A stretch of 64,000 nucleotides of DNA. Source: Psilocybe cubensis. Its lineage: Eukaryota. The notes beneath the pieces were generated by a model. It worked only from the letters and a program-made list of their open reading frames with translations. It was not told the origin of the DNA and did no database searches. The stretch is taken from NCBI GenBank assembly GCA_017499595.2, contig CM038998.1, forward strand, positions 248,001-312,000, in the 5' to 3' direction. Made by a program: the position numbers and the translations under genes. Below are positions 4,601 to 49,141 of this stretch, one piece after another (the first letter of the stretch is position 1; the number at the start of each line of letters is the position of its first letter).

Positions 4601-5319
4601 GCAATAAGTACCTCTAACTGATCATGACTCAGATGGGCGCTGAGAAATATCTCCGCAAACTCGAAGTCAAGACGTGTACGGAATGGGCGCCAAGGCCTCT
4701 GGTCCACATTGACAGATTTTAACGGTGAATCGCCTTCGCTGTCAAGCTCGCAGTATTCGTCAAAAGTATAATTTGCATCCGGAATTTGGGAGCTTGGGTG
4801 ATACTTAATGTGTATGTCTTGAAATTGGGGCGTGGTACTTCGAGCTTGCTCAAAATGGACATCTGATTCGGAATCCTCTTGCATTTCTAAATTACAACAT
4901 CATGAGTAGCTTTTTATCTGTTTTTCTATCAATTAAATGGTGCTTACCTTCGGAGAATATATTTGGAAAGTTTGGTACTTCTGGTAATATACTGGCCTCA
5001 TGATAATTGTTTGGATGTTGTTGTTGAGCAATTCGGATTGCATTGTCAACTATTAGAAATACAAGCATTAGAAATATGTATGCACAGAAGTAGGTACCAT
5101 CTTTCCATTTCTGCCCTCTTGCTCAGCAAGAGCAACAAATTCTGTGTCAATTTCCGGTGTGTGATGGTTTGAATTGGCTGGATTGAGTACGCATCGTCGT
5201 TCATGAGCTCCAATTCCACGAGGAAGGTACATGTTTGTGCACCAGGTGCACTCAACACGACCCGGATCTGCATGAGACGTCATGTACCCTTTTGACTGAG
5301 CTGTTTTACGAGGAGGCAT
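1697..5319 (-). CDS. Plavaka transposase (multi-exon, apparently intact)
   Basis: Motifs PWRPFRTRLDFEFAE, RPLWEW, DEPWTANTWWDIQ, WADKSQLSSFGTVKGYPV..ANLP..IRNG.G.GGG, SADYEE, CPICLVP, FDVLHAYDGG, WNFPKAH, NTKPYEK; ATG at 5319; sense codons at the positions that are stops in copy 2. Confidence 0.85.
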
Positions 5320-6028
5320 ATTTGGTGAGAGGCTTGTAAGAGAGAAGATAAGGGCGCTATTTGTTCATTTAAGAAAGCACAACTTCCACTGTAATTTATA
5401 CTTTTCTATGTCTTAAGAAATCAAGTAATATTAAGCTAGAAGAGTTCTATACCTTTTCTAGAAGTTTACATATCTACTTTCTTGTGGAACTAAGTGTCCT
5501 AAGCATGCTAAACTTGGTAAATGACAAAAAATCGAAGCCATTAAAGGCATTTAAAGTGTTCTATTGTCTCTTTTATTTGTGTTTAGTATCACGATATACA
5601 GTCTAATCATACAACTTAGTGCACAGATTGCCCGTAGAAGCATAATGTGTGGTGCTATCAGTGTTTTTGGTATGCTTAAACAACTCCAAAGCCTCTATCA
5701 ATTGTTTCCTCACGTCGTCTATGACAAGTCTGAATCCCTAGTGTACGTTATCTTATCTTAAGGTCATTTATAATATCACACTGCCCTTAGCATTAACAGG
5801 AGGCGGTCTCGCTTATCATACCACGTTGTGCATTTTAGCCCATTAACAATGATCTGATCAGTAAAATCGGGGCAATGATCAGACTAACGCCTGAAAAGGC
5901 GATCTAGAGGTTACCGACACACGTTGACGAAGCATGCTGCGTGTGTCAGCTGAAAAAATATGTGGAACTTCCTTCACTTCAGAATATTTATAGACTCTAT
6001 GAACAAAGAAAAGAAGTGGGCCTGTGAT

Positions 6029-10151: not shown

Positions 10152-12803
10152 ATGCCTAGAAATTTTCGGGTACGGAAATACGCCAGCGCATCCGGTGTAG
10201 TTGAATCGCTCATCTCTCCCCTCCCAGTCCCCTCCCCATTATCTACAAAGACCACTGGCAACTACCCCGTGAGACGTAAAGCTGGTTTCATTTGTGTAAT
10301 AATTGAGTTGTTGAACTCGAATGCACATATGCAAACCACTCTCTCAGATTAACCACGCTGTTCAGTAGACGCAAATATACATGTCTCACGTAGATTGCCG
10401 TGGCTTAGCTAAAGTAGTATTGTAGGTATATGTACACCTTATGAGCCCCACCATGTCGCATTGCCCGCAACGAGTTCAATGAGGCACACGTGTGGGAAGA
10501 CAGAGTGCAAGGTGAATTTACACTTAAGCCCGGTAAGCCATTGTTGGATTTGTAGCACTGCGAGTATTTTTTAGTGCAAATTGAAATTGTATGCAGAATG
10601 GAGAAACACAGTTAATCCGAGGACTTCGCAAAGTCTCCCACAATCGATTGAACCACAAGGCCGATTGATCACGTCGAAGGTTTAGAACCTGGAGCCTGAG
10701 TAAATTTTACTGTTACCGAGGTCTGTGTCTTCGATGTGATTGAAATCAGTGTGCTTGATTGCTAGATCTTTCTTCGATCTTGAAATGGGCATTTGTTCGT
10801 TATCAGAAATTCTTAAGTATGATTGTTGCAAACACGATTCGGAGCCCTTTCTAATTTTCACAGTCGATACCATGGAGTCTGTAATTGAGGACTTTGACTC
10901 GTCCGATGCTTCAGATGACATCAAACAACTACCCAACCACAGCAGACGACCCTTTCCTCAGATTGAGAACTTTCCGGATATTGATGTTGGTATCGTTCAA
11001 CATGCATAATTTAAAGATTACACTCAATTTCCGCCTTTTTTTTACAGTTATTCACTCATGATTTCGGGGAGTTGAACGTGACAAGGTTTGCATTAAGCTC
11101 TATAACCTTTGTACTATACATTTACCTTCATTTAACAGTCCTGTGTATCACCCTCATGTGGACGAACACTCCTCCAGTAGACACCACCGTTATTCCGCCA
11201 TCGATAGGCAGCAACATGAACTCTCTGCAAATAATGAAGGGAATAGCGCCCAGCGGTTCCCGCAGAATATCCCGCATCAGACGCAGCAGAACTGGTCCCA
11301 CGACGTCGAACACGAGCTAAGGCGGATATCTGGATCGAGTGTACGACGTTTGGAAGCTCAAGATAGGTCTGAACACCGCCATAATGAGTCACTGAGCAGT
11401 GGACGCCGTGAAATGAGTCTCCCCTTTATGAAAGCACCCTATTGATTGGAACTAGAGGAGAAGAAAGCCCAGGTCCGTAGAGTGGTGGCATATTTTTTTA
11501 GATCCTCCACCGCTACTCCAGAAATTATTCAGCAGTTTGTGAGCGTCATGACTGGCACTAAGGACGACTATGGCGCTTTACTCGGGCATATGGATATCTT
11601 GGGCCCACTTACTAGCCATGGAGTCATTGGAGAGGTTTACAACCACCTGCACTTCATTGTTTTTGGGTACGAACGAGACGCCTACCCCCCGTACGTAACT
11701 ATATTGATACACCGACCATACTAAGTCTCTAACACAATGAATCATTTTACAGAACATCGCTCTCGTATACTCCGGTTAATGGCATCATCCAAGGCGAAAG
11801 GACTGAGAACGTAGTTGGACCATTCAACGACAACGACCCAGGATCAATTTCAGCGCCCAATAGTCCTAGAGACCATGTATCAAATCAAACATCCATAAGG
11901 GTGCCAATAGCTCGTGCAGCTTACGATCCTCCGCCCCCGTCCACTCCGTCACCACGGGATAACCCACCTACTACGTTAGTGGACCAGATCCCAAACAGAC
12001 CTCAGGAGCTCTCTGTATCCTCTACAGGAGAATATCCACGCTCTGCACGCCAAACATCCTCGAATTTTGGACAGAGGGATACTTTACTTATGCCCCAGCC
12101 TCTGCAAGCACCTATATTGCCTAGACAGTTTACCACACAGCAAGAACCCGCTGTTCATTCTAGCCCTCGTCGAGTCCCCTCTCCAGAAATGGGAGCGACA
12201 TCAACCTCATCTACTACCACTGCTGTGCCTGCATCTCTCCTTTCCCCTTTCTTGTCAACTACGCCAAGCACCTCAACTGCTTCCGCAAAAGCATACCTTG
12301 CAGCACTATCAGCTAAGGTTAATCGTAACGAATTTGAAAGTGTAGACGGTGGCACCATAGCGTACACTGTTACCATCTTGTGTTCTGAGGAGCCTCTGGC
12401 CGACCCTCCTATCGATGCCTTGGATGGACCACCTGAGCCAGGTGATCTGTTATTCAATCAGTACCCGAATAGTGCACAGTCACTTCGGAATGCTCAGGTC
12501 TGGATTTACCTTGACAGTGCCACTCCCCAAGACAAAGGCAATTGGCTCGATATTAAATCGCAGTATGGTACATTCTCTGGGCCGGGAATTTCCCACCCCA
12601 AAGCTCCGGATCGCTATCTTACTACGTATGCAGGAAAGGAAGGACGTCCACGTTGGATTAAGAAGAGTACGTGGGAATCTAATCAGCGAAAACATCTGGA
12701 AGAAGTTGATAGGATGCAGCGGATCTCCAAGGGCCGTGCAACAGCCACACCTACTCCCTCCGCAGCCCCATCTACAATTTCTAGAAGGTCAACTAGGGGC
12801 TGA
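10152..12803 (+). CDS. Hypothetical multi-exon accessory protein inside the CACTA-like element (5' structure uncertain)
   Basis: Chain of + strand ORFs with splice sites ending in the 300-aa ORF 11901-12803 (PGDLLFNQY..QVWIY..W..HP..RYL..PRWIK). Confidence 0.5.
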
Positions 12804-12918
12804 TGCAACGTTGGAATCCAATCTGGTAGCTAATTATAGTTAGCTTGTAAGGGCATGTAAATTACAACTCAAAGGGTCATGAATCAATTACTTTTCTTTC
12901 CACTTCTCCCTCAATAGT

Positions 12919-15900
12919 ATGATAAGGCGTGGCGGGCGTGGTGGACGCTCCCGACCTCCAATAGTGAGGTGCAAATGCAAATCGCACTGCACAACATTAA
13001 ATCCCGCTACGGGACTCTATGAGGGCGAAGGGGTCCTGCAAACACGTTCTACTCGGGACAACCATACCAAGGATGATAGAATGCTCGAGATGACTAGAAA
13101 TCTTGCGACTGCGTCTACTAATCTGGAGGTTAACGCTTCTGTGGATCAACTACAGCAGATTCGTGACGAAATTGATCTTATAACATCCCAGCCACTCTCA
13201 GACCCCCTTTGTCCTTTTGTCTTTACCAATAGACCAGAAGAGAATGGACCTTTTGTCTGGCCGAACGAGCACGATTTTTTGCTTCCAAATCATGGGTTAT
13301 ATGCTTTAAAAAATGAGCTCGTCAACAGGCCATACTTGATGACTGCAAATCGCTTATATGATATATACAACTGGGCCTCTAACCCTTTCATTCAACTTGA
13401 CGGCGATATTGACTCCTTACTGGACCACATAAAAGAGAAGATGGCAGAATTGGTGCGCTTGAAAGAGGTTGAATGGTGCCAACAACGAGGAAACAGTCGC
13501 ATAGATGGTCCATACGTCAATACAGGCAAGGACATCGATTCTTACCTTTTCAGAACTATGATTAATGAAATGTTTCGGACAGATATGTATTTCCAATCAT
13601 TTGGTCCAACAAATCCCAGAGAACGTGTTGCAGTATTTTTATCACTTGTTATGGAGAACATATTTTTCACACCGCGTCGTGCACTTTGGGCAATGCTAGC
13701 TGGGGCTAGGTCGCTACTTCGATCAAATATGGCCACTGAAACTGTTTTAGCGGAAATTCCTGCTGATCCAAGGTCGGGATCTTCTCGAGCGCGCCTCAAC
13801 CCCACAACTCGTCAATTTGTTGTCTGTCCAAAATGTCACAAATTGTACTCTCTAAAGCCAGGCGATAGTCCCCTTAATATCATCAACCCCTTCATTTCTG
13901 TATGTGTTGAGCGCCATACCCCGGAGTCAACAGAGTGTAACACACCCCTTTGGAAGAATCGCACCACATCACTTGGAACCTTGTATCCAGTGCCTATTCG
14001 GAAATATGTCCATCAAGACTTAAAATGCTGGGTTGGGCGTCTGTTATCTAGAAAGGGAATGGAGGCGATCCTCGACCAGCAGAATGTTGACCTCACTGAC
14101 AACTCGCCCACATCACCAATTGCGGATATATGGACCGCAAAGATATTCAAAGAGTTAAAGGATGCTGCAGGAAACAGATTCACTCCTGGACCTCCTGGAG
14201 AAGGAAGGCTGATTTTCAGTCTGTCAGTTGACAGCTTCAATCCTTTCCACAATAAAACCGCAAAGCAAACCTTGTCATCTACTGGTATTTGGATGGTTTT
14301 ACTCAATCTCCCCCCCCACCTCCGATATCTTCATGAGAATATGTACGTTGCAGGCGTCATTCCAGGCCCAGACAAACCATCAAAAGAAGATATATACCCA
14401 TACATTGAACTAGTCAGAGACGACCTCTGGGATTTCTGGTTTCAGGGTGTCCGCTTCTCGCGCACAGAGAGCAGCATTTTTGGTCGATTATACAAAGCAA
14501 TGCTAATTCCACTCATTTGTGACATGCTTGCTGCACGACAAATTGCTGGACTGGGTGCAACTACGTCGCACTGCTTCTGTACCTTCTGCGAAATGGATAT
14601 CGACGACATCAATATTGCAGATAGGGATGAATGGCCAGCTAAAGATCTCCAACATATTCGGCGAATTGCTGAACTTTGGAAGAATGCAAGTAGCGAGAAA
14701 GAGCGGGATGTAATTTTTGAGTCATATGGCATACGGTGGACCCCTCTGCACACTCTTCCCTACTGGGATGTCATACGCTTTACTGTGGTTGATCCTATGC
14801 ATGCGTTGGACCTAAACCTTTTTCAAAATCATTGCAGGTCGATCTTTCAGATTGACGTGGATTCTAAAGGTGGAGATGGAATTGGTTCAGCAGTCCGGCG
14901 ACAACGACGGCTCACTTCCGAAGATTCTCTCCGAAGCATGCGTCAGTGTCTTGTCCTCATTCAGTCCAACAATTCCGATTTGATTCCTATGCTTTTGCTA
15001 CATACCCGTCCAGTACTCTATCAGATCTGCGTCGATAACAGCATCATTGGGGAAGGACACCGATTCATTGTGGGAACTAAATGGATATTGGCAAATAATA
15101 TATCAGCATGGGTACGTCTGCTTACATGCTTCACATCTCAGATCATGATTTAACGAAGGTTTGTTGGTTTCTTCTCTAGAGAAATAGTTCGGCTTATCAA
15201 GGTGTTGCTGACCACCCTGACGTTGGTGAAGATGAACCAGCAGAAAACATACCAGAGATAACACAGACACCAAATCTCCCTGTTGAAAGCGGAATGGACC
15301 GCGCCCTTGTAATCCGAATTTTGAGAAACCTCTTTGCCGACGACGATCCCGAGATATCTCAGGACAGAGCGTATGGCCAGGGCTCTGTCCCCATATTTCT
15401 ATATATCTGCAATCTTGTCCAGATACCAACCACCGATGTTGACGTACGACGGAAAGCAGCAAAAAGGCGATTATTCAGAAAAATAACTAGTGAGGTGAGT
15501 ACGACTTCCGCTGTGACTGTAATAAAGCACTGACCTTGAGTAGATAGAGAAAGGCAACGACACAGCTCGCATGTTACAGTCTTATATTCCAATATACGAA
15601 TCTCCCCGTCCTGTGCTTGGAATTGATGTCATGGAGGAAGTGTGGGCAGATATGACGCGTACCCAGCTGCCTACGTGGGTCACTCCTGCTCCACCTGATT
15701 GGGGAACAACTAGAAGAGGGAAGCTCAGCGCTGATAACTGGAGGATTGTCTGTTCAATTCATTTGCCAATTACTCTTATTCGCCTCTGGAGTAACAACAC
15801 TGATCGTAAGCGTCAAATGCTTAATCATTTCATGGACCTCGTCTCCGCTGTCCGAATTGCCAATATGCGAATCACAACACCCGTTCAAATTGATGAATAC

Positions 15901-16950
15901 AATCGTTTAATGGCCCGCTACGTCTCTCAAATCACCACATTGTATGCCGATCAAACTCTCAAACCATCACATCACGCCGCTTTGCATATAGGCGATATGC
16001 TAGGTCTGTTCGGACCCAATCACTCACATAGTGGCGCGCACTACGAGCGATATATCAATTTCTTTCATCGTGTCAATACAAATCAGCAAATTGGTAATAT
16101 TTTCATTTAATGTATCAAGCACTAAAATGACATAGTTTTGTGTAGGTGTGCTAGAGTCCACATTGCTTCATACCTCTGCGCGGAGTGCCAACATACGGGC
16201 GTTACTCACTGGTGACTCGGACATTCGAACCTCGATTATGGAGCTCGTCAATGTCATGGACAATGTTGACCAAGAGGACATTCGAGGGTTTCGATTGGCA
16301 TCCATACTTGACCCTGAATCGCCCACATATACCCAAAGAAGCAAGTCTGATGTTCGCTCGCTCGATCCAGTATATCATCAGCTACTTTGTCAACGCCTAT
16401 CGCCAGACCATCAGCCGACCTTAATGCCACGGGACGGTACATTTCTGAAGGAAATTTCCCGCCAAGGAGTATGTTATGGAATATCTACAGCTTCAACCTT
16501 TAAAAACAGCGCAATCATGTTTCGACCTCATGACCAGCAAAATGGACCTTTACACGCTGGAATAACAAAACACATCTTCCGTTATCGTTATCCAACTGCG
16601 CACAACCAGTATACCGAGGACCATTTCTTTATTGTGCAAGAGCTCGTGCCAATTGATAATCCACTCATAACCGACCCTTATAGGACTTTCATATTTGGGG
16701 GTTTCCTTTGTAAAAACACGGGCCCTGAAGTAGTCATCAAGCTGTCGGAGGTTGTTTCTCATTGCGCTCTCACACGCTTAGAAGCCACCCCATTCAATGG
16801 TTTACTTCATGTCCTACCTTTAGATAGAGTAAGTTCACTTTCATGCATTTGTATCCTCATAGATTAATGCTAACATTTTGTTCAAAGCTGATGTTGGAGT
16901 TTGATTCATTGGGACTTAGTAGAGGTGAGGGTCCAAACGAACTAGACTGA
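12919..16950 (+). CDS. CACTA/Tnp2 (Transposase_21)-like DDE transposase
   Basis: Motifs CPKC, SVDSFNPF, LNLPPHLRY..N..GVIPGP, ICDMLAAR, FCTFC, LPYWD..VDPMH, GKLSADNWR, HHAALH..LFGP..YERY; the three downstream introns and the final one splice in frame to TGA 16948-16950. Confidence 0.88.
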
Positions 16951-17285
16951 GGAAACGTGGGAGATCCACATTTAAGATTTCGGCAAATGTCACGGATCAC
17001 GGCTGCCCAATGTCTTTCTGTGGAAACATAAGTATATTAATTTGTAGAGGTATGACAGAACAAATAATTAATATTATCGAAGAGGAATCAAAAATAACCG
17101 ATGTTGCATCCGCGAATCCATTAGAAAGGAAAGACAGAGCTTAAACAGTAAACAAAACAGAAGACGATCTTTCAAAAGGTAAGTTGCGGATATCGTGACG
17201 AATCATACACTAACTATTTTACAAATAGTATTCAAAGTATTTTCGTCGATTTCAGGGTAGATTATATGTGCCAATGCCCACAGTG

Positions 17286-19607
17286 TGACCTCATTATTTC
17301 TTGAGGCAATTGGCGTCCGAGGGAATTGGATATCTGTACCTTTGATTGATGCAGTCGAGGTCATCTCCCCTGTTGCAGCATTCAAAACGCTTGGTAATTA
17401 TATCCCACATCCATGGATACGTACAAGAAGAGCCAATAGGAGCGTTGTCAATTTTTGCCCACAAAACCCACTTAGTCGAAGGCGGATATACATTCGGCGG
17501 AATTTCGACCATAGTGACGAACAGAATTTGCGCACCACCTGAGTAGTACCCAATGTTTCTCCAGCAGACATTTGGAGTCTCAGCTATCCAATTGTAAAAC
17601 CGGGACGCTAAGGAAGCAATGTTCAATTATTGCAACAATTGTACGAGCATTAAAAGAATTTACGCGAGTCAAACGATCCAGTATCTTCGTGGGGCCAGTT
17701 TGGGTCCGGATTCTGGTCAGTAGGATGGCGGGATTCCGCAACAAGACAATAGTGAGCTCCCGATGGCAAAGGGGCAGGGTTGAGCTTATTAAAAGGGGTG
17801 TCTATTACATTGAAACTGTTGGCCGATGTTGATTTGATTCGACGAATAGCGGTTGTGTTTCCATCATGCTGATCGTCATCGTTAACCGATTGGCTGGCGT
17901 ACATAGAGGGGTAGATGAGCAGATCGCCTAGAACACAGAAAAGCCTCGTTTCAACGAGGTAATCGTTGCCCAAAGTGCAGTTTCCGCGGAGATAAATATA
18001 GTTTGGTGCGCCTTGCTGGAGATTGATGGTATTATTGGTGGACCAATCTACATTGGAGTTTCCACCACCTAAGATGGTAGTAAATTTGGGGTTGTTATGT
18101 GTTCCAACAGGTTGAATGTCTGTAAAACAATGTCAGATATTTGTATTTGTGATGCTACTAGCATAATCACCAGGTGAGTTGGATCCATACAGGGACCGTG
18201 GGAAATTATTCGTATCGTTTAACCTATCGCGGAACCACCATCCAGTTGCAGCGCCATATATCCTGAGGTTTTCTGTATTTTCAGCAGTCATTGAATCTGC
18301 ACCGGCTTCGGCCTCCGGAATTTTAGAATATTCCTGAAGTTGGTTAGCCGCATGACTTGCGTACTTCAAATGGGTGACAGCCTCATCGTGGAAAACAATG
18401 TTCAGGGCGCCCAATAAAAGAGTTTCTCCGATTGGGATGGTCCTAGTATCTTCTGAAGGGGGTTGAATAATGTTGGCTTGGAGAGAGACCCAGGCAAACG
18501 TATCGATGACTTCTTCGGGCCCTGGAAAGATGTTAAGTGTGATAATGTCGTCAAACCCGGGTTCTAAGTCAACCTGGACTCCAACATCGGGAGCGAGAGG
18601 GGACTTGACCATGTAGATGGTACCAGTTGTAGATGAGAGCGAGAACAATGTACCGCCTGGCATTATTGAGGTCTGGTGCATTTATTTTCAACGTGTTTTC
18701 TTGCCAGTACATTTTAGCAATGAAAAAAATTACATCAATGGTGATATGGAACTTAAGTGGCTCCGTACCGTCATCGAATACCCGAAGACGTGTAGAAACA
18801 CTAATGATGGGAGCTTTGGGATCAGCGACAATGACCTGAGAAATTTTAATTAACACTTGGTTTCTAAAGAAATACTTCGACGTACGTTGTAATAAACTGT
18901 CGAAGTGTCATTCTTCAAGAAGTCGGCGAGATCCTTCCAATTCTTTGCATCTGCAGGAGGACGCGGCAAAGTGTCCCTCAAACGTGTTTCTGGAGGAGGG
19001 GGAAGGATGTTGAGTGGGGACTGGGTAGCAATCAGGGCATAATTGACACCACCCATATTGGGCAGTGTGAATCTGAAAGGCGTGGCACAAGCGACGACTA
19101 CAGAGCGATTAGAAAATCTGATGACTCCCATACCAAACTTTAGTAATCACCTTCGTCCGGAGCGGAAGACTTGACAACCAATGGTCCAGGGCCAGTTGGC
19201 TTCACTTTGTTCCATACTTGAGGCCATAGAATGAGCTCGCTTGGTGCGGCACGGAGAACAACTGCGGTTTTAGCTCCGGGTTCGACATCGCCAATTGATT
19301 TTCCACGAATGTAAACGTAATTTGTGTCATTTGGTTGGACCGGAAGACTAATAAATTGGGAATATTCATCGATCAATAGATGTGGTGTAAGTCTGTTCCC
19401 GTAGTGTGGGATGATATCTGGCGTCTGCGGAATATAAGCATTCTAGTATAGCAAGAAAGGCAATATTGACAACTTACAAACGCTGTCGCCTTGGAGGACG
19501 GATAGTCGGATGTTAAGACTGTATGACCCTCAGGATAGGGTATTATGATTTGACTCGACCAGCTTACAGTTTCTAAAGATCAAGTTGTTCGTACGATGTT
19601 TAGACAT
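17286..19607 (-). pseudogene. Tandem-domain protein family, paralog A (3'-truncated)
   Basis: ATG 19607 (MSKHRTNNLIFRN); exon-by-exon homology to B and C; the last two exons (TRGCGF..., WPFSVGIHHPG...) are missing beyond 17286. Confidence 0.8.
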
Positions 19608-21252
19608 CAGGAAAGATTTGAACTTTAATTGAAAAGGTAGAGCTGGGGTTCCTTTAGAGGTAGACCTAATAATTATTGAGTATTGCGCAAGCTTATATAG
19701 TATTCTGTGCACTTCGTTGATTTCTACGCTTGATGAACTATAGTTGATGACCAATGAATCATTTTCCAGACTTGTCAATCCTCTTGCGTCATGGACAGTA
19801 TTTCTCCCAGGCTTTCATAGCTCTGTCCCTTCTTGATGCAATTGGCAGTACGGAAATGAAGTACACCGGCGCCAAACACTTCGACTACGAGAGATTCTAG
19901 GCCTATATCAGGTATGCCGTTGCACATTTGACAACTCTTCTGCTTCACGCTGTGGCCACATGAGGGGTATGCTCCCTGTACCAAATAATCACCGGACATG
20001 CACGCTTAACGTACAACAGTTAAAAAAGGGTCTTTTGAGGGCTTCACCTCGATTGGCAGCTTTTTCACAGACGGAATTCCAGCCATTCAGCCTACAATAG
20101 TCTGTGAGAACCTATGATCTATAAAGTTATATGCTTTTTTGTGTTTTGCAATATCCTTTTAACTTTTGACTTTGTTCGCTCATAATAATCATTCAAGGAC
20201 GTTTAACAAATTTTAAAGAGTGGTTTTCATTAATACAGTGTTTGTAGTATAGCATCAACGATAACAGTTAAGGCCATTACGATTTCTGCCCGACAACAGC
20301 AGGCTGCTTAGAAGCATTGTAATACATGATTCTACACCGCTTGTGAAAACACGACTCTCCGCAAAGTCCAAATCCCGGAATTAACAAAGCGCTGGAAATA
20401 AAAACCATGAGAATCCCCCAATCCACGCACGTCCCTTCCGCACCCAAATAGTACATGCAAATCAGCAGACCAATCTCGGCCCCAACGGTGCCTGGCACAC
20501 TCAGAGGTATGCGCTTATAGAACTTAGAAACAATGTCATGTTCTCAAGGCCGCGTCCAACAGATTTGCTGGCTCTCACCCAGAGACAGAAGCGTAGTTAA
20601 AAGCGTGTCAGTTAGAAAGAACGATGATGTTCACCTTTGACAGGGAGAATGCTTGAGATTGGGAGGGTCCGGCAAGAAGGTTTGCGTGTGATCTTTGCCA
20701 TCAGACCTCTCCTTCAGCGTTCTTCGACGTATTAGTATTACGCAGCCTACCGTCCGAGAACGAGAGTCGATTAATTAAATGTAGCTACTCAAATGATATG
20801 TCAGGAATCATTTTGACGGCTGAAGTTGACCAAAAATAGCAACACTGTTCTCATCTTTTGAGGATACGAAAAGATGGAAGTGGTTATTTATGAGATGCAT
20901 GATACTTCATAGTATATTCAGGCCTAATACCGCACCTTTCAATCCTCACGAAGTGTCAACGCACATTGGTAGAATGTGAGTGAGATCAGCAGATCACCCG
21001 CATATTTTAGCACAAGCTGACGGGCAATGGGCATCGGGGTCCAATACTATCGTTTCCACGTCAGCGCTGAGTTTTGTCAGTGATTATACTCGAGCTGAAT
21101 GTATATCCCACACGCTGAGAAACTAAATTTGCCCACCGAATAACGCTTTCCCATTTTAGCGCCCATTAGTATTACGCGTTAATTTCCGAGATATAAATAC
21201 GTTCATTAGCGCACAGACCGGGGTGAGTGTGAGTGGAAGGAGTACACTACGA
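18340..21252. repeat. Left arm of an inverted segmental duplication
   Basis: 18340-21100 matches the reverse complement of ~43715-46520; 21100-21252 matches the reverse complement of ~40772-40985. Confidence 0.85.
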
Positions 21253-21621
21253 AACACACCACACTGATAGCACATGACACGGCACATGGCACGCCTGCCG
21301 CGTTGGCTTCAAGTTCAAGTTCGAGTTTGAGTTTGAGTTTGAGTTCAAGCCCTTTGGCTAGTCCCTCACCCCATCACATCAAACCCTTCAATGTCAGTGG
21401 GAAACTGGGTCTTAAGTCGTACAATGCAGAAGTTCTCCGCAAATATATCAAAAATCATCAAAGTAAATGTGTTTTTTATTGTTATAAAAATGTGTGTTTT
21501 GTAGGGCAATAACAGGCCCGAAAAATGTATATCAGGATGTTTCTTTAAATGTTAATTGTTGCAGAAGCGTAAGAAGTTAGATTTGAGCATATGTCCCGCA
21601 TCATCACGGCTAACACTTGAG

Positions 21622-24450
21622 CTAATCATGAAGCCATGTATCCGAACCCATTACAAAGCCCGTAACGGGTGTTTTATGGGGCCAGGGGTTGGGACCGATA
21701 GTCTTAAAGTGATCTCCAAGATATTCAATATGGTTCTCACTGATTTCGGCATTAATCTTGTTCTCGAGTCCTGGATGATGTATACCAACGCTGAAAGGCC
21801 AGTTGGCTGCCTCTTCAGGGAGAGTAATAGTGGCCGCGGGATGGATCATGTTTGGCCTAGTACGTTAAAGGTGTGTAAGTGTGTAAGTCCTCGGGATATA
21901 CAATAGGAACTCGACCTACCCTCCGTTTCTCTTGTGCCTGACGAGCTGGATGCCAAATCTCATGTCATTTGGAACATTCTTGCCCTCGGAGAACCATTGT
22001 AAATTAACCCGGAATTTAATACCACCTGGAGGAATTCCTGTAAATCCACATCCCCGAGTCTATAAAGTTTTTTGGGCATCAATTTCATTTGGTCAATCGG
22101 AGGAAAATTAAAGTGCATACGGACCTCCCTGTCGCCCGAAGCAATTAGCGTCCTAGGAAATAGGATCTTGGCACCTTCAATCGAGATGTCTGAAGTCAAT
22201 TCCCCTGCGGTAACAATTATAGTGCTTTGCAATTGTAACCCAAGTCGATGAATACGTACAAGACGAGCCCACTGGAGCGTTAAAGGCTTCTGCTATCACA
22301 TACCACAGGGTAGACGGCGGATAAATGTTACGCGGAATTTCAATTGTAGTGGTGCATATAATGGTGGCACCGCCATGATAGTACCCAATGCATCTCCAGC
22401 AGATATTGGGTGTATTAGCTATCCATTCGGCAAATTTGGCACCTAAAGAAGCAAATTTCAATTATTGGACAATGTTATCAAAATAAAGAGAATTATTCAC
22501 CAGAGATAAATAAATCAGTGTCTTCGTGTGGCCAGTTTGGGTCCGGGTTCTCGTCAGTAGGATGGCGGGACTCGGCAATGAAGCTATAATGACTTCCTGA
22601 TTGTGGAGGGGCAGGGTTCAAGAGGTCGAAAGGCCTGTCCAGCACATTGAAACTGGAGGCCGATGTGGATATGATTCGCCGAATAGCCGTTTTTCTTCCA
22701 TCTTGATCATCGCCATCTGTAACAGCGTACAGGGAATACATAGGTGGGTAAAGAAGAAGACGGTCTGGGACGCAGAAAAGTCTCGTTTCAACAAGGTAAT
22801 CGTCGCCCAAAGTGCAGTTTCCACGAAGGTAGATATAATTTGGTGCGCCTTGCTGGAGGTTGATCTGATGTTCATTGGACCAATCTAGATTCGAATTATA
22901 ACCACCTAAGATTGTCTTGAATTCCGGTTTATTTTGCGTCCCGACCGGTTGAATATCTGAATAAATACATCAGGGAGGTTCAATCGACAGGCAGATCGCA
23001 CAAGTACCAGGTGAATTAGATCCATATAGTTGCCGTGGAAATTTGTTTACGTCAAACAAATGATCACGGAACCACCATCCAGTTGCACGACCGAGTATCA
23101 TGGTGTCGGAAGTCGTTGGAATTGCGCCAGCTTTGGCCTCGGCATCTTTCGTATTGATATATTCCTGAAGTCGGTTAGCCGCATGACTTGCGTAGTTCAA
23201 GTGAGTGGTGGCCTCATCGTGGATAACGATGTTCAGCGATCCGAGGATTTCATCATGGAGTGAGCCATCATTACCTCCTATATTAACACTGGCTCGAAGG
23301 GAGACGAAAGAAAGGGGGTCACAGAGACCATCTGGCGCAAGGAAAATGTTGATAGTAAGGATGTCGTCAAACCCGGCAGATAACGGGACCTCGAAATAAA
23401 TGAGCGGGCCTGGAAGCCTACACTTGGCCATATTGATAACACCAGTTGTTGAAGAGAGAGATACATATGTTCCCTCTGGAAAAGCCGAGCACTATTATGA
23501 TGTTGATGTTAACATCTCATCTCACCCGCACGGCCGTACGGTTTCAAAGGGAAGTAAATACCAAAATCGTGATAATAATCGGCAGTGGTTCTGTGCCATC
23601 ATCAAAGATGCGAAGACGTGTAGAGGCGCTAATGATAGGAGCCTTGGAATCCTCGACAACAAACTGAAAGGGATCATTAGCATTTGTTTTTCCATCAAAA
23701 GCCAGTTTTAACGTACATTGTAATAAACTGTCGACGTGTCATTGTTAAAGTAGTTAACAAGATCCTTCCAGTTCTTTACATCTGCTGCAGGAGGCGGCAA
23801 AGCATCCCTCAAACGTGTTTCTGGAGGTAGCGGTGTATTGAGCGGATACTGGGTAGCAATTAGGGCGTAAGTGGTACCGCCCATATTGGGCGGTGTGAAT
23901 CTGAAAGGTGTGGCACACGCAATGACTGCAGAGCAATTAGTAAAAATGTCACAACATCCACGCCAAAATATGACCAATTACTTTCATTCGGAGCGGAAGA
24001 CGTGACAACCAATGGTCCAGGGCTAATCAGATTTGTTTTGTTCCACACTTGAGGCCATAGAATGAGCTCGTTGGGTACGGCACGGAGAACGACTGCAGTG
24101 CGAGCTCCTGGCTCAACATTAGGGTCTGATTTCGCTCGAAAATAAATGTTGTTTATCTCATTTGGTTGGAGCGGGAGATTGATAAGATTGTCGTATTCCT
24201 GGATCAAGAAATTAGGATCAAGTTTGTTGCCGTAGTGCGGAATAATGTCTGGCGTCTGTAGGGATTTTAGTACTGGTGACAAAATATATTGATAAGGCAA
24301 TTCAGCCCACAAGCTCTAGATACTTCTTTGCCGAATAATTGGTCTTTCTTAATGCTATACACGTAGCCATTAGAGAAGGGCATTGCAATAGGACCCAACC
24401 AACTTACAGTTCCGAAACATCAAGTTGTTAGGCGGTACTTCATGAGCCAT
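21622..24450 (-). CDS. Tandem-domain protein family, paralog B
   Basis: ATG 24450 (MAHEVPPNNLMFRN); TPDIIPHYGN, LILWPQVWNK, GWWFRD, NYIYLRGNC, CWRCIG; ends GSDTWLHD* at 21622. Confidence 0.8.
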
Positions 24451-25729: not shown

Positions 25730-28700
25730 TTAGGCGGGTAGAGTAGAGTAGAGCAGAGCAGAGTATGTACAAACCACCGAGTACATCAAGCGCCCAGCCA
25801 CCTGAATCGTCCGCGTCATCCTCCGCCTCCGCACTCCCATAGAGGCCGGTATACGCCCTGGAGCTGGAGATTCAGAGGAGGAAAGCAGGCCCCAAAGCCC
25901 CTCGTCGCCCTCTTCATCACCCAAAATAAAAGCTTGCTTACCTGCCGATTTCATGTCTAGCACTGCCGATAACAACTTACTTACCTTACTTACCTTACTT
26001 ACCTTACCTTTACTCACCTTACAAAGTATGTTGTATATTGTATGTTAAAGCTTACTAGCCCTCTCCTCGAAAGCTCACTCCAATCTCCAATCTCCAATCT
26101 CCAGTCCCCATTCACATGTCATCACCATTCAATATTCAAGCCATTCAATATTCAAGCTTCAAGCCTCAAGCCTCAAGCTTCAAGCCTCAAGCTTCAAACT
26201 CCAAGTTCGATTCGTTCGATTCGATCCGATTCAACTTGAAATTCAATCCGATTAGTACCTAAAATAAAAAAGCGAAAAAAAAAAGAAAGAAATAAAAAAA
26301 GAGAGGTCAAAGAAAAAGGGAAAAAACGAAAGACAAAAAAAATTACGGTATCCTATCCTATCCTATCCTATCCTATCTGTGTGTCTGTATCCAATTTATA
26401 ACTGCATCCAGTCTGTATATGTGTATACGTGTAGCTAGTTGTAGCTGCATCGTTTCGCGAGTCCATTCCTCGCCTCACGCCTCGCCCCTTGCCCCTTGCC
26501 CCTGACCCTCACACCTGACCCTCACACCTGACCCTCGTACCTGACCCTCGTACCTCGCCCCCCGTACCTCGCGCACGCCTCACCAGGAGCATCACCAAGA
26601 CCATCAGCATATTTTCTGCGGAACACCAACACCAACAGCGGAAGAGGGCGAAGTGCTGGGAGAGGAGAGGAAGACGCGGATGTGGATGTGCGGTGCGTGC
26701 GCGCGCGCGCGTGGGGTGTATACATGTGCGCATGCAATGCAATACAATGCAATGCAATACAACGCGTAGCCAAGAAGTCGAATGCATTCATCGTCGTCCT
26801 CCAGTCATCGTCATCTGCACATCCCCCGCGCCCGTCGCCGTCCCATTAGCACCAGCACTAGCACTCGCACTCCCAGCACTCCCGCCCCCATTTCCATTCG
26901 CCCCAGAAGCACCGCCCCCACCTCCACCACTCCCACTCACAGCACCCCCAGCACCACCTCCACCTCCACCCCCACTCCAGCGCAGCCCAACCTCCAACAA
27001 ATCCCACCACCCAATCCCAATCCCAATCCCACCACCACCACCTCCCCCCGCCCCAGTGCTTCCTCCTCTCTTGTCAGGCGTAGCACCCGCACCCGCACCC
27101 GCGCTCGCGCTCGCAGCGTTCCCATCACCCCCCTTGCCCTGAGCCTCTTCATCGCCCTCACCATCCCTCTCGCCTTCGCGCACCAGGCGCACTCCAAGAA
27201 GCCCCTCCCTCTCCCCCTCACCCACTCCAAGATGCCCCTCACCCACACCCTCACGCATCCCGATCCCGCCCCCCAATCGAATTATACTTGGCATGGAACG
27301 GCGACATCGCAGCATGCGTTCTGACCTGTTCCTCCCCCCCTCCCCCTCCTCCTCCTCCTCCTGCGTTATTACTCCCTGAAAATCCAAAGGAGCTCGAAGA
27401 GTCCATCGGCGTCGCCGCACCAGCACCATACCCCGCGTTCGCCGAGGAATGGATGTTGGACGCGGCAGCGGCAGCGGCGCCCAACCGCGATTTCTTGAGA
27501 ATTTCATCTGCAATGTCCGCGCCGTATTGGTCTGCTAGTTGACTAGATAAAAAAAAAAAAAAAAAAAAAGTGCAGGGTTAGTAATAGTCATTGTGTTATG
27601 GTATGTAGATAGGGGGAGGAGGGGAGGAGGGGAAGTGGAGGAGGGGAAGTGTAAGTGTGAGGTGTAAGAGCAAGTGCGCTAGCTCCTCCATATCACATAA
27701 CACATAACACGAAATAACACAAAACACAAAACACAAAACAACAGAACACAAAATAACAGAACAGAACAGGTGAGACGAGACGAGATATCACGTATCGCAT
27801 CGCGTCTCACGTATCGCATCGCGTCTCTGCGAAGCCCAAGACATATAGTGCGGCGGCGGCGGCGGCGGCAGTCGTGGTCGTGGTACGACACGACGCCACA
27901 ACGTAAAAACGTAAGATGCGGAAACGTGAACGTAAGATGCAGATGTAACCCGTTCGCGTAGATGAAAGATGGTTAAATGAAAGAAGAAAAAAAAAAACAG
28001 AGTGCGGAGGAAGAGCGGAGATGAGCAGTGAGGCGAGGAAGTCAGGAGTGGGGGTGAGGAGGAAAACGTAAGAAGTGGAGTGGGAGTAGTGTAGAGTAGG
28101 GACTCGGGAAGGGCGAAAACGCACATCAACCGCCAAATCTGCATCCAAGCTGCACAATCCCCTAAAATCCCAAAAATCCAACAGAAAAAAAGAAAAAAAA
28201 GATGATGTAAAGAAAAAAACGCCAAAAAAAACAACGCCAAAAAACGCCAAAAAAAAAAGCACAAAAAAAAAAAAGCACAAAAAAAGAAACACAAAAACAA
28301 AAAACCACAACTCACTTGGCATAATTCTCCATAATCACCGCCATCGTACTCATATTCAACCTATACGCCTCAGGCATCATCCCCTTCCCAAACCGATACG
28401 TCACATGATTACTACACAGCAGCCCGGCAACCATCACCGCAAGCTGAAACGGCACCAGCACAAACGCCGCCGCATACCACCTCTTCAGCACGAACCTCTC
28501 AAAATCGAGGTAGGGCAGCTTGCACCCGGGGAGGATGGAGCGCGCGTAGCACGTTTGTGTTATGGTCGCTTCTACGAAGGGGGAGAAGTAGCCGCAGCAC
28601 TTGAGCTGATTCTGGATCCTCGCTCTGCCCTCCGGCCCGAGGGCCCTCGACCACTGCGCGTTGATCTTGCCCTCCAAATTGAACGTCCTCTTCTTATACG

Positions 28701-31690
28701 TCATATACCCTGGAGTAACGAGCAGGGCGAATGTGATCCAGGTGAAGAACGTGTACCACGCGAGGAAGCCGCGGTTGTTGAGGAGGATGCCGGCGAAGCC
28801 TATGAGGGATGTGAGGAGCCCGATGCATGATGCGAGTGTTGAGAGGACGAGTTCGGGGTGGTTCCCTGTGCGGATGATGTCTGCGTGTTCCCAGATGTCG
28901 AACCATGTCAACAGGCACACTACGAGTGCCGCGAGGGAGTACAGCACCAGCTGTGTATGCAGAGTAGAATGATGTTTGAATTTTTGAGAGGAAGAGAGGA
29001 AGAGAGGGGAGGGAGGGGGGGGGACGCACCATGCTGTTTGTGACTAACAAAATCCACTTGAACTTGTTCCACCTCAACCTCCCCTTCCCCTGCGGCATCC
29101 GCGCCTCATTACTCCGAAACGCCTCCAACCCCCCACCCCTCTTCGGCATCAAATTCTGCTCACCCCCCCCTCCTCCCTTGCCACCCTTCCGATTGCGCGT
29201 CCCACCAGGCGACACAATACTCGCACTAAACTTCGTCGGCAGATAATTCACACTCAGCGAAAGATTGCTCCCCGTCGCAACGGAGAGATTATCCTTCGAT
29301 CCTCGCGCAGAGGACGGACTCAGCCCCCCTCCCCCCCCTCCCCCTGCAGAGGCAAACGGGAGCGTAGGCGCAAGGAGCCCGTTGATATCCGTGAGAGACG
29401 AGGAGGTGCCGTGGTGCATGTCAGCGAGGATGGGCCGGGTGGAGTCGGCGCGCGAGTAGGAGGAGTTGGCGTGGGAGATGACGGAGGAGCGGCTGGGTGT
29501 GTGGGTCCCCGAGCCCGAGTGGGAGGTGGAGGTTGAGCGGGTGTGGGTGTGCAGGTGGGAGGGGGAGGAGGAGGTGGCGAAGGGGTGCGGGAAGGTGGGC
29601 ATGGGGGAAGGAGGGTGGGAAATGAATGGAAGTGGAAGGATGGAAGGAGCCGAATAGGGAATAAGGAAGGAAGGAGGTGGCGAGACCCAAACACAAAGTG
29701 AGCCGTAAACCAACGCAGAAGCGAACAGCGAATAGCCAAAGCGAACGTGAAAGTAAAAGAGAGAGAAAGAGAGAGAGAGAAAGAGAGGGGCGTCAGTCAA
29801 TCGGGCAAAACGATGAAGCGGGCGGCGGCGGGAATGTGAAAAAAAAAAGACGACTCACGGAGAATTTGGATCCATCTAACACCCGGTACACCGCAGTCGA
29901 TCAACAGCAGCAACAGCAATGATCAACAACAGCAACAATCAACAATCACAACAACAACAGTCAATCACAGAGGACAGATGGCGGGTGAATGAGAGTAGGT
30001 GAGCGAGAGCGAGGGTGTGGGTGTGAGTGCGTGACAGACGATTGTTGATACGTGGTGACGACGACGATGATGTGGGAAAAAAGAAAAAAAGAAAGGAGTG
30101 TGGAGCGTCGAGTCGAGCCAAGTGATATATGGGACGCCGCGTAGGCCAGGCGGTGCGTGCAGCGAGGTGGAGTAAACCAAGGGAGGTAAACGAAGGAATA
30201 AAGGAAGGGAAGGGTGTACGTTGATGACAGCGAAGACAGGAGGCGAGGCGAGGCGAGGCGTAACAACGGCGTAGCGTAAGCGGTGATGGGGAAAAATAAG
30301 AAAAAAAATTTATTGCGTAAGAATCATCCTCAAATCAACTTTATGAAACCAACAAAGCCAAAGCGGGTCACCGAAAAAAATTCGTTCTCATGCGCCTTTC
30401 CCACTTTCGCAAATCGAATCGAATCCGAATCGCCACCTTTCCCGACTTCCAGGCGGAAATGAGGGAGGTGGTGATAGTGATAGGGATTATGTGGATCCAG
30501 CCAAAGGCGATATAATCCGCGATTCGCAATTCGCGATTCACGATTCATGAAGGGGCAAGGGGCAAATGCAAGGGGCAAGGGGCAAGGGGTAGAATAACGG
30601 CCAACACACACCGCAAACCAGACAAGGGGTAGAACAACGAACAACGGCCCACACACACCGCAAAACGGACAAGGGGTAAAGACAAAGCACATACCAAATG
30701 CGGGCTCCCCGTCCGCTCAACATGATGCTGCTGCCCATTCTGATCCAGATACGTCGACCAGACGCGTTGCATTGCTGTGTGTGTGATTGTGATTGTGTTT
30801 CTGCTTTTATGCTTCTGCTTCTGCTTCTGGATGGTGTGTGATGATGTGATGCGATGCCGTGGGTTGGGGCGGGTTGGGGTGAGGGCGGGTGAGGGCGGGT
30901 GAGGGCGGGGTGAGGCGGGGTGAGGCGGGTGAGATAAGGCGGGACGCGGGATGAGGTGAGGTGAGGGCGGGCGGGATGGACGGGACGGTGGGGTTGGATG
31001 GTCGTATGAATGAAGGGAATGTGAATGAATGAACGATGAATGAACAATGAATGAACAACGGACAGAAGGACGGAAGGAAGTACAGGAAGGTAAAATCAAC
31101 GGACGGATGGACGGACGAAGGGAGGAAGAATCGTCGTGATGGTAAAAACAAAGAATGTACAACGCCCGTGCGTCCGTGTCCGTGCTTGCGCGTGGGTGCC
31201 TGCGGGGGGCGGGACGGACTCAGTCTAAGAAAAGGGAAAACGCGGGGTACAATACAAATGCCCACGCGACGCGAGTAGTAGAATGTAGAATGTAGAATTC
31301 AACAAGCAAAATTCAAAAACAAAAACAAAAACAAAAACAAAAACAAATCATCAAATACAAACACAACGTCTACTAACAAGGAAAGTGGCAAGAACAGCAC
31401 AGAACAGAACAGAATATATAGAACAGAAAATAGATATTCTGATAGATAGATAAGGGAACCGGGAGGATATTCGATAAGGACTAGCGACTCGGATAACGTG
31501 CGACCGACCGACCGAGGGAGCGAGCTACTCTTAGAATATATACTATACTATACTACACCCATACTATACTATACCTATACTATACAACGCTCAAGAAACC
31601 GGCGAACCCGCCATATCCAACCAAGCCATATCCAACCTAACCAAGCCATCTCATATCATATCATATCATATGAACATACATAGATAATAG
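25730..31690. repeat. Microsatellite/low-complexity island around the tetraspanin gene
   Basis: Dense runs such as (CTTAC)n, (CCTAT)n, poly-A, (GA)n, (AGGCG)n, (AAAAAC)n and (TATAC)n. Confidence 0.85.
27251..29602 (-). CDS. Tetraspanin, Tsp2-type (basidiomycete)
   Basis: Four hydrophobic segments; CCG motif (QLKCCGYFSP), CYARSILPGCK, HVTYRFGKGMMPEAYRL; introns 28951-29029 and 27543-28315 join in frame to NQLADQYG; start codon tentative. Confidence 0.85.
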
Positions 31691-40771: not shown

Positions 40772-46520
<5,749 letters not shown>

Positions 46521-49141
46521 TCTAACCAACTCAAGACATATTTCAACACGGCAAATGCAGAATCTACAGCTACAGCTACGGCCGCACAAGGGGAATCTGT
46601 GACTACCCAGAATGCCAGTCCATCATCATTTGATGCAACTGGATGGTGGTTCCGTAATAATTTAGGTGATACAAAGCACTTTCCACGACCCGCTGGCTTC
46701 CAGTGTGGTTCACCCGGTACGAATGCTTGCTGTTCTTCCTTTTTCTTAAGATGCAAATTTTAATCAATTTATGCTATTCAGATATTCAACCTATAGGAAT
46801 ACGAATTAGACCTGATGTCCAGACAATCCTGGGTGGGTCGAATGCGGGTACAGATTGGTCAGCCGCGAATCAAATCCAGCTTCATCAGGGAGAACCCAAC
46901 TTTATTTACCTTCGCGGGAATTGCACTACAGGCTCCGATTATACTGTTCAAGCGAGACTCTTCTGTATTCCGAGCAAAGTGGCCCTTTCTCCGTATCTTT
47001 ATCCGAACTATCCAGTGCTCGACCCCGAAAGCCACGACAAACCCGTAGCCGCCTATCGGACAATCACATCGACATCTAACAATAGCTTTAATGTGCTAGA
47101 CACACCTTTCGACATTTTAAACCCACAACCTTTGGAGTATGAGGATCACCACTGTCTAGTTGCTGAGGTTCGCCATATTAGCGACAGTGTGCCTGACCCA
47201 GATTGGCCACATGAGGATGTTTCGTCTTTCGACTCAGGTGAATAAAGCAACCTCTTCATTTATTTAGGTTATCTCACAGGATGGTATGTCGCTTCCTTAG
47301 CCACTGCACTTGGAGAGTGGTTACGTTATACTCCCACCGTTTGCTGGAGGAATATCGGTTTTATTCCTGGCGGCGGTGCACAAGTTATTTTGACCACTGG
47401 TGTTGAGATCCCAGATAAATTTTCCCCCACCAAGCAGTGGGTATTGGAAGCTGAGGCTCACAATGCACCCATTGGCTCTTCTTGTGCGTAATATTCTATT
47501 TTGAGTCTGGTGACAAGACATTTAAAAATGCTATCTACTCCACAGGGCTGCTACACACAATACCGTTTCAGGGATACCCAACACTCGAAAAACCTATTGG
47601 CTTTGAGCTTTCAACAATCACTAACCCCAATATGGTTTGCATGCATACCAATGTTTATCTATACTAATGGGCTGATGATCCAATTGTTTCCCAGACTCAA
47701 GGATGTGGTTTTAGTGGCCTCCCCCCAGGCGGTTATAAATTCTGGGCAATTCTAGAATGGTATTCTAACAACACACAGCATCCAGGTGACATGAGCCTTC
47801 ACTTACATCTTCACTCGGCGACGTCTACTGCAGGGTAAGCGTTATTACTAGCGTGTCTCCAAAAAAAACTTACACTATTTCATTGCACTAGACCAAACTT
47901 AATCGAAACTGCCCATAAGATCCTTCCTAAAGAGGCAGAAAATTGGCCGTGGTCTGTTGGCATTCATCATCCGGGAGTGGAGAACAAAGGCGACCAAAAG
48001 AAGACACACATCGGATATCTTGGCCCTCGTTACAAAAACGCTGGACTCAATCCGAGCATTTTGATTGGACCCACTCCAATCTACACTTATGGCACGGATA
48101 CTTGGATTTAGCCTTTGTTGAATGCCGTTTATGGGAGGCAAACTGCCTTTGGATGTGTTGGAGGTGGAATATTTCCATGTATATCGCTCCGCATCCCTTT
48201 TGATATTTCGTACATAAAGCAAAAATATCCATACATCTATTTCCCGGGCCTGCTGTTGCCCTAAGAAACATGCAATTTTGTATAGAATGTAAAGAAACCA
48301 AAATTTTTACTTTGATCACATTTAAATTGCGGAATATAAGAACCTAGATCCCGTTTGACTTCAGCAATAACCAAGCCTACTCTCGAGGTTCCAACTGTTG
48401 ACTTAGAGAAAATGATAAAATAGTGCCATATCAAGTGTAATTCGATTGGGGGGCGGGATTGGGTTACATGAGGGTGAGGGTCTGGGTCTGGGTTGGGGTG
48501 AGTAGGTGGGAGCTGATGGGGTGAACGAGCGTGAAGGGCTTCTTGGGGTGCGTAAGCGGTAGGGGACGGGGTTTAGGGGATGGTGGGAATGTGTTGGTCA
48601 CAAGCACAGCACCACACATCATGCCCTCCCCTCTTTGCCTTTTCACCTCTTCGCATCTCCTTCCACCATCTATCGCTTTCGGCTTTTGCTATGCTTGTTA
48701 CCCATATAAAACCGCCGATGCTTTTAGGAACCGAGGGGATAGGGGAGAGGAATGGACTTGTGATTGAATGATGCGACTTATTACAGCAGGCTACATAAGT
48801 ACACACACACACAGATTGGATACAGATAGGGTACCGTAACTCTGTGTTTCGTTTTCTTCTTCTTCTTTCTCTTTCTCTTTCTCTCCTTCTTTTTTTTCTT
48901 TTCTTATTTCTTTTTAGGTACTCATTGGATTGGAAAGTTTTAATTTGAATCAAAGCGCAGGGTAACAATGAAGTAAATTAATCTCATGCATCTGGATAAA
49001 CATTTGTATATGAGATTGTGCGTATACTATCGCAGAAAGCCTCGTCTATTCGTATCTTGTGTCTCGTTCTCTTCCTAGCCTCATGCGCAATCCGACTCCA
49101 GTCTGACCTTGCTTAACCTCATACCTCATACCTCAAACTTC

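Follow-up and report, generated by a model that had tools for sequence, protein, structure and literature searches.

The window analysed here is a 64,000-nucleotide stretch of Psilocybe cubensis DNA. It carries three paralogs, A, B, and C, of a family of proteins of about 750 amino acids, whose genes and exons are placed as follows.

17287..19607, minus strand: paralog A, multi-exon, with a spliced model built from coordinates
19607-19568, 19518-19478, 19424-19151, 19097-18886, and 18835-18734, minus strand: exons 1 to 5 of A in the spliced model
18672-18171, 18119-17664, 17607-17425, and 17369-17290, minus strand: exons 6 to 9 of A in the spliced model
21625..24450, minus strand: paralog B, JR316_0000066 (P0002), 749 amino acids, full length
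45262..48108, plus strand: paralog C, JR316_0000071 (P0059), 758 amino acids, full length, located by tblastn (the end coordinate 48108 is approximate and marks the last residue in the tblastn alignment)

A and B lie about 2 kb apart in the same orientation, and C is inverted relative to A, head to head with it at a distance of 26 kb. The exon coordinates of the spliced models were taken from the three-way DNA alignment and cover exons 1 to 9. In these models, all eight introns of each copy run from GT to AG, with lengths of 49 to 70 nt, and each modelled copy has an open frame; exons 1 to 9 of A contain no stop or frameshift. As far as modelled, the three copies agreed by eye with their database entries, P0001 for A, P0002 for B, and P0059 for C. 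Exon 7 of A was 100% identical to P0001, a UniRef Psilocybe cubensis protein of 546 amino acids, which equals the A model through exon 7 with the sole difference that intron 7 is read through, leading to an early stop. An earlier note on this DNA had quoted peptide motifs for the three paralogs; all of them were present in the paralog named, and the quoted peptides were found in stop-to-stop frames of 17286-19607 on the minus strand. Databases hold at least nine P. cubensis entries of the family, clustered on one contig, and the family is patchy across Agaricomycetes.

When the region of A was searched against the window with BLASTN, C was matched at 44.4 to 46.5 kb on the plus strand, at 86.6 to 88.4% identity and in the 5' part only, and B was matched at 22.1 to 24.5 kb on the minus strand, at 71 to 76% identity with both parts covered. 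The earlier note had described A as a mosaic with a C-like 5' half and a B-like 3' half. This pattern was borne out by the identity profile in 100-nt windows, where A-C identity was 0.75 to 1.00 from 20100 to about 18370 and 0.38 to 0.66 afterwards. A-B identity was 0.42 to 0.84 in the 5' half (0.67 to 0.84 in exon-dominated windows) and 0.60 to 0.80 in the 3' half, so that the nearest copy of A changes at about 18390. Between a point some 0.9 kb upstream of the ATG and position 18390 or so in A, A and C share 87 to 88% of their letters, compared with about 55% beyond it; "near-identical," as the two had been called, is an overstatement for an identity of 85 to 88%. The single BLASTN alignment of A with C had 86.6% identity over 2,163 nt (18327-20479 versus 46542-44400), and that of the 3' part of A with B had 71.3% over 1,117 nt.

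When the genes of A, B, and C were aligned, 863 sites were informative, and these showed the same change. To the left of the break, 309 sites united A with C, 50 united A with B, and 39 united B with C; to the right, the respective numbers were 114, 251, and 100. The maximum chi-square of 224 placed the break between A 18393 and 18388, and a value as extreme was obtained in 0 of 2,000 shuffles. This is exactly the switch at HDEA, near 18390, that had been proposed from the sequence. The earlier note had also put it between two repeat domains, and the break does fall at the module boundary, in the final strand of the first module. The segments defined by this break are as follows.

18388..18393, minus strand: switch point by maximum chi-square, in exon 6, within the conserved ...NIVFHDEA... 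strand that closes module 1
18391..20479, minus strand: A-side portion of the A/C tract of high identity, comprising the 5' gene half, introns 1 to 5, and about 0.87 kb upstream
17287..18390, minus strand: 3' part of A with B as nearest paralog, comprising the rest of exon 6 and exons 7 to 9
44400..46542, plus strand: A-like tract within and upstream of C (BLASTN, silent sites), the likeliest overwritten part
46543..48108, plus strand: C's own deeply diverged 3' part

Protein trees were built separately for the two segments from A, B, and C together with 10 or 11 database proteins; the fragments P0013 and P0014 were left out of both trees, and the N-terminally truncated P0005 was left out of the 5' tree. 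In the 5' tree (13 rows, 321 columns), A and C formed a clade at 96/93 within an (A,C,B) clade at 99/98. In the 3' tree (14 rows, 286 columns), A and B formed a clade at 97/98, and C sat on a long branch (0.87) of unresolved position. The separate trees gave conflicting clades, and the topology tests were weak: in the AU test on proteins, an enforced (A,B) clade gave a p value of 0.04 for the 5' half, and an enforced (A,C) clade cost 11.9 lnL units at a p value of 0.16 for the 3' half, which is no rejection.

The long branch of C and this AU result leave room for a reading without any exchange, in which A and C would be sister copies from end to end, with either the 3' half of C or its local mutation rate running faster. 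The earlier note had named faster evolution of C's second domain as what would undo its proposal. However, the switch was also present at sites that leave the protein unchanged. dS between A and C was 0.23 in the 5' half versus 1.91 in the 3' half, and pS was 0.198 (bootstrap interval, 0.147 to 0.254) versus 0.692 (0.608 to 0.773). Fourfold sites were identical between A and C at 116 of 141 positions in the 5' half versus 27 of 74 in the 3' half. Intron identity between these two copies was 84 to 90% for introns 1 to 5 versus 54 to 55% for introns 6 to 8, and for introns 7 and 8 it compares with 69 to 73% between A and B. Since synonymous and intron sites thus jump at the same point, by about eightfold, faster protein evolution of C is no explanation.

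Derived residues pointed the same way. With a consensus of 10 further Psilocybe paralogs as the reference, at about 213 sites of the 3' half, C had no excess of derived residues (76, versus 70 in A and 67 in B), and derived states in common numbered 25 for A-B, versus 15 for A-C and 13 for B-C. RIP-like hypermutation of the 3' half of C was considered as a further candidate and rejected: the A-C differences there comprised 224 transitions versus 225 transversions (ratio, 1.00) and GC content was equal in all copies, so hypermutation is not behind the divergence. C's second half is older, not faster, as the silent and intron jump, the derived-residue counts, and the segment trees agree, and a history without exchange is barely credible. 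An exchange between the paralogs, probably non-reciprocal and by gene conversion or ectopic recombination, is real and well supported. The shuffling by one of these routes that the earlier note had suggested is consistent with both the silent-site jump and the discordant segment trees.

Which copy is the chimera is a separate question. The earlier note had named A, and two forms of this reading can be formulated: the 5' half and promoter of A were overwritten from C, or A is C's sister with its 3' half replaced by a B-like copy. The switch near 18390 and the discordant trees fit this reading too. Since the topology of three sequences cannot name the chimera, dates were compared. Silent divergence between A and B was uniform, with dS of 0.85 in the 5' half and 0.86 in the 3' half and pS of 0.508 and 0.512 (bootstrap interval of the difference between halves, -0.10 to +0.12). 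That between B and C was unequal, with pS of 0.544 in the 5' half versus 0.681 in the 3' half, and the difference was zero or less in only 0.8% of 2,000 bootstraps. With A as the recipient, this inequality would have to coincide by chance with equal A-B values. The contrast instead points to C.

Three dates were then fitted to the six pS values from the A, B, and C DNA, assuming uniform synonymous rates. A tree of ((A,B),C) with a tract from the A lineage moved into C gave a chi-square of 0.74 (3 df, p = 0.86); either form of the model with A as the recipient gave 22.9 (p = 4e-5), and the model without exchange gave 120. These p values are heuristic because the six pairwise values share branches and are not independent, and the pS values of 0.68 to 0.69 are near saturation. 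Silent divergence was also uneven along the gene, with codons 60 to 150 low in all pairs. Independently of the fit, the dS of 0.86 between A and B in the 3' half exceeds the 0.23 between A and C in the 5' half, so that B itself cannot have supplied the 3' half of A once A and C had split. In addition, the A-like gene of other samples, described below, keeps its likeness to B in the 3' end and in the flank. One observation does favor A as the mosaic: A had 48 derived residues at about 242 sites in the 5' half versus 70 at about 213 in the 3' half, as would result from import from a slower lineage. On balance, we consider a mosaic A unlikely.

Taken together, the uniform A-B silent divergence against the unequal B-C divergence and the fit of the date model suggest that A is probably the full-length sister of B, and that the promoter and first module of C were overwritten by an A-like copy. 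We put C as the recipient at about two in three. The direction from A to C is our inference and rests on roughly uniform synonymous rates; the mechanism would be gene conversion, or duplication-replacement with one homologous junction. By the consensus used above, derived residues in the 5' half numbered 82 in B and 48 to 49 in A or C, at about 242 sites. This excess in the 5' half of B, about twice the number in A or C, is unaccounted for by the preferred model.

The history proposed on this basis starts from an underlying tree of ((A,B),C). A and B would be tandem sisters, with a dS of about 0.86 over all the sequence that they have in common, and C would represent a much older lineage, at a dS of about 1.8 to 1.9. 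Later, at a dS of about 0.2, a stretch of the A lineage of at least 2.1 kb would have been copied non-reciprocally over the matching part of C. The copied stretch would have begun about 0.9 to 1.5 kb upstream of the ATG and extended as far as module 1 does, and one tract end would have been resolved within the conserved coding patch ...LLGALN(I/V)VFHDEA... (A 18388-18393). C, rather than A, would then be the chimera, in which the promoter and first module are of A type while the second module and the C-terminus are C's original, old ones.

The two tract ends differ in kind, the 3' end lying in the conserved coding patch and the 5' end in non-coding DNA. Upstream of the ATG, A-C identity was about 85% to about 20480 and, past an indel, about 70 to 71% to about 21104. 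This homology, which continues upstream of the ATG, indicates that the promoter region travelled with the first gene half; the upstream region of B is unrelated to that of A beyond about 60 nt. The outer part is a segment of its own.

20484..21104, minus strand: lower-identity upstream A/C homology (about 71%), beyond the indel at about 20483, non-coding

In the one frame tried, this segment contained 13 stops. A further match, of 114 nt at 85%, was found by BLASTN between 21122-21235 and 40944-40826, and open reading frames upstream of C gave no Pfam family above the cut-off. Classical conversion does not readily explain the upstream end of the tract, as paralogs so old should share no non-coding homology there.

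An end in non-coding DNA where no prior homology is expected, together with the step from 86.6% to 71% at about 20480, which hints at two or more events or at a duplication junction, would suit a different origin. Either A, C, or both of them would have received the tract from a third, unsampled paralog, or C would have formed by duplication and fusion of a copied A fragment with an old gene, and not by conversion of a full gene already in place. However, no annotated protein was nearer to A than C in this part of the gene: with exon 3 of A as the query (8 proteins at E<=0.001 among 138 candidates), C was 92% identical and the next match 71%. With exon 7 of C as the query, the best non-self match was a P. 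cyanescens protein at 59%. No third copy closer to A or C was found among the database proteins in searches with exon 7 of A, exon 7 of C, and exon 3 of A. Moreover, the equal A-B silent divergence in both halves means that A need not have been altered at all. A third donor or a fusion is thus improbable, and copying of the A-lineage stretch into C is retained as the preferred reading.

Interlocus (non-allelic) gene conversion and the chimeric paralogs that it produces are a general phenomenon of clustered gene families. A, B, and C resemble such cases in the abrupt change of nearest paralog, in a tract of low silent divergence set within an old divergence, in a tract end that lies in a conserved coding patch, in the nearby inverted copies, and in the intact frames. 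They differ in that the A/C tract extends about 0.9 to 1.5 kb into non-coding upstream DNA, carrying promoter and first module together, and in that a single event is seen between A and C, its tract already about 13% diverged, with no ongoing homogenisation. The direction, too, is here reconstructed rather than observed. In a search of titles and abstracts, no paper on gene conversion in Psilocybe cubensis was found, nor, among the matches listed, any relevant paper on the family or on subtelomeres, nor any on six accessions or locus tags of members. The process is well known, and this instance and this family are not described in the literature searched by title and abstract. The locus offers a clean, datable example of a cassette of promoter plus domain that moved between old paralogs in a basidiomycete. 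It also illustrates that a "mosaic" call based on three sequences may single out the wrong copy if the dates given by silent sites are left out of account.

The 3' end of A is a separate matter. Similarity of A to B stops at 17290 (tblastn), and A is without the last 125 to 130 or so codons that are present in B and C. A search for these missing C-terminal exons elsewhere in the window gave chance-level matches only (best E, 0.011 to 0.02, at 27 to 28% identity). Two features mark this end.

17286, no strand: structural junction at which the homology of A to B and to the A-like contigs of other samples ends
11733..16867, plus strand: long intron-free open reading frames directly 3' of the truncated A

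The reading frame at 12883-15153 matched Transposase_21 (tnp2, PF02992) with an E value of 1.5e-11 and 44.4 bits versus a cut-off of 28.6. The assembled A breaks off at 17286, which is also where the stretch described in the earlier note starts; this is the border of exon 9 and intron 9, and the transposase-bearing DNA begins there. As in tnp2/Transposase_21 DNA transposons, the neighbor of A has a reading frame above the PF02992 cut-off, and it adjoins the cut point. Unlike them, it has no detected terminal inverted repeats; a search for such repeats in the transposase-bearing DNA gave none that was convincing, with eight weak pairs and none of these at the ends.

Contigs from three runs of one other study (X1, X2, and X3) contained an A-like gene in a different context. 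These A-like contigs cover 17286-18961 or 17286-19036 at about 93% identity, with 115 other letters and 17 gaps, and the gene crosses the switch point without interruption. Beyond the A-like part, this contig continues on the 3' end and flank of B (21979-22025, 21673-21819, and 21445-21557), with a joint from 22025 to 17286 in all three runs and loose ends at 17286 in X2 and X3. A separate contig in those samples is B proper, at about 98.5% identity. Another contig covers 16057-17286 at 99.4 to 99.8% identity; past 17286, in X2 and X3, its letters are unlike the window. These contigs fit a gene that is complete and B-like to its end in other samples, whether as an allele of A or as a further paralog, and the continuity into a B-like end agrees with a likeness of A itself to B all the way to the 3' end. 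The divergence of A between samples might have been due to conversion by B or to relaxed constraint, but this idea was rejected, as the variants were symmetric: of the 36 listed at 17335-17676, from more than 280, the other sample agreed with B at 17, the window agreed with B at 16, and neither did at 3. A further contig (X4), possibly from RNA, overlaps A and B in short stretches of 24 to 62 letters alone and probably belongs to another paralog. The contigs of X1 to X4 leave 10501-16011 without cover, a blank that carries no evidential weight.

A HMMER search against 1.84 billion representatives gave 47 proteins at E<=0.001. Ten of these relatives were one further P. cubensis paralog, one metagenome protein, and eight named Agaricomycete proteins, from Jaapia, Sparassis, Serendipita, Hydnomerulius, Fibroporia, Rickenella, Cyathus, and Boletus; the named ones are all "hypothetical." The family is Agaricomycete-specific. 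Five exon peptides and four full-length members gave no Pfam family above the cut-off, the best matches below it being DUF3108_like (E, 0.023) and DUF1318 (E, 0.16). A sequence-profile search of the PDB gave no relative; one match at an E value of 0.06 was ignored.

An AF2 model of C from a 29-row alignment (pLDDT, 81.7; pTM, 0.71) showed a chain of beta-sandwich domains, with a strand at residues 306 to 317, a helix at 319 to 349, and a low-confidence linker at 343 to 364. When the two halves (24 to 296 versus 391 to 685) were compared by profile-profile alignment, they aligned with a probability of 98.7% and an E value of 1.9e-16, which indicates that the protein is an internal duplication of a module of about 300 amino acids. 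The "two repeat domains" seen by the earlier note were therefore rightly recognized. Foldseek gave no match at E<=0.001 with the domain as the query and only generic multi-Ig-domain proteins with the whole model (TM, 0.03 to 0.17). In the wide VIA-align search with the domain, the best Z was 6.0; 17 chains reached Z>=5 and none reached Z>=8, and the best matches were Ig-like or transglutaminase-type barrels. Since the fold searches gave generic beta-sandwiches only, no function was inferred. A family of duplicated beta-sandwich modules might nevertheless repay study, and nothing indicates a new mechanism.

In the ESM Atlas, feature scores of 0.90 to 0.97 were obtained to bacterial two-sandwich or CARDB-like clusters, which serve as leads only; a CARDB-labelled cluster of 199 amino acids aligned to residues 380 to 614 of C with a TM of 0.75 by cluster length. 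The bacterial proteins in question comprise "hypothetical" two-beta-sandwich modules of about 300 to 360 amino acids, and CARDB, NPCBM_assoc, or transglutaminase-C-like domains that are appended to secreted peptidases. The fungal AF2 models resemble them in being beta-sandwiches. In contrast to these modules, the fungal proteins have no Pfam (CARDB PF07705 included) or PDB sequence match and, by eye, no N-terminal hydrophobic stretch, and they consist of two modules plus a C-terminal domain. The bacterial CARDB-like likeness is thus a lead, a resemblance and no membership.

Pairwise dN/dS was 0.32 for A-C and 0.33 for A-B in the 5' half, and 0.30 for A-B and 0.21 for A-C in the 3' half. These values, from pairwise comparisons of three DNA sequences and none of them above 1, indicate purifying selection with no sign of diversifying selection in either half. 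With no family or function assignable to the proteins, the parallel that the earlier note had drawn with recognition or toxin families under diversification thus finds no backing. A broader version of that idea is a fast-turnover family with highly polymorphic members that swap cassettes of promoter plus module at the module boundary and thereby form new combinations of modules. It could cite the identities in the samples of the other study, about 93% for the A-like contig versus about 98.5% for B, and we give it only a slim chance. If true, such module swapping would suit cytoplasmic non-self-recognition or defence in mushrooms.

Divergence was unevenly distributed along A, B, and C, three paralogs of the duplicated-module family. 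In the first module, 82 of approximately 242 residues of B (5' half of the gene, 23008-24450) were derived relative to the consensus of 10 other Psilocybe paralogs, about twice the 48 to 49 of A and C. Silent divergence was not elevated in the 5' half of B. Codons ~60 to 150 (18950-19250 in A, with their counterparts in B and C) had low synonymous divergence in all three pairs; pS was 0.26 to 0.46 for A-B and B-C, compared with 0.5 to 0.7 elsewhere. This stretch could be a cold spot, or it could reflect an older exchange that involved B too.

In the public database protein of A (P0001, 546 aa), intron 7 is read through (17650-17664) to a stop, and the protein ends in ...GSFDSRKFF. If spliced like B and C, A gains exons 8 and 9. 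Only the first three to four bases of its intron 9 are present before the gene is cut at 17286. Contigs of one other study carry an A-like gene that runs on into a 3' end resembling that of B, and in them the piece at 16057-17286 is found in a different context with 99.4 to 99.8% identity. There are further loose ends at 10154/10189, the stretch concerned being 10189-17286. Between samples, the A-like gene differed by about 7% (17286-18961) and by about 10% at 17335-17676, versus about 1.5% for B (21389-23908). Either deeply diverged alleles or an additional paralog could account for this difference between samples.

Other features of the window
2-5919 and 31695-37606: inverted duplication with 5.9-kb arms, 95.5% identity
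11733-16867, + strand: four consecutive long intron-free ORFs of 356, 756, 188, and 243 aa
41385-43638, + strand: five ORFs of 109 to 143 aa in a row, directly upstream of C
54511-55290, + strand: P-type cation ATPase exon, matching E1-E2_ATPase and Cation_ATPase_N

Beside A, the second ORF (756 aa) of the row at 11733-16867 matched Transposase_21 (tnp2); terminal inverted repeats were looked for around this row, and none were found. The five ORFs upstream of C, which had no Pfam match, are probably exons of a neighboring gene, and they separate the two stretches (43719 and 40944) of homology shared by the upstream regions of A and C. The block at 26000-32000 had a GC content of 0.48 to 0.54 and a strong AT skew of 0.17 to 0.31, with long ORFs overlapping on both strands at 26.5-29.9 kb; two ORFs from this block had no match in Pfam. 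The axis of the inverted duplication differs from that of the A/C pair, and family C-termini gave weak tblastn matches (E values of 0.01 to 0.05) at corresponding places of both arms, 4708-4863 and 32746-32901.
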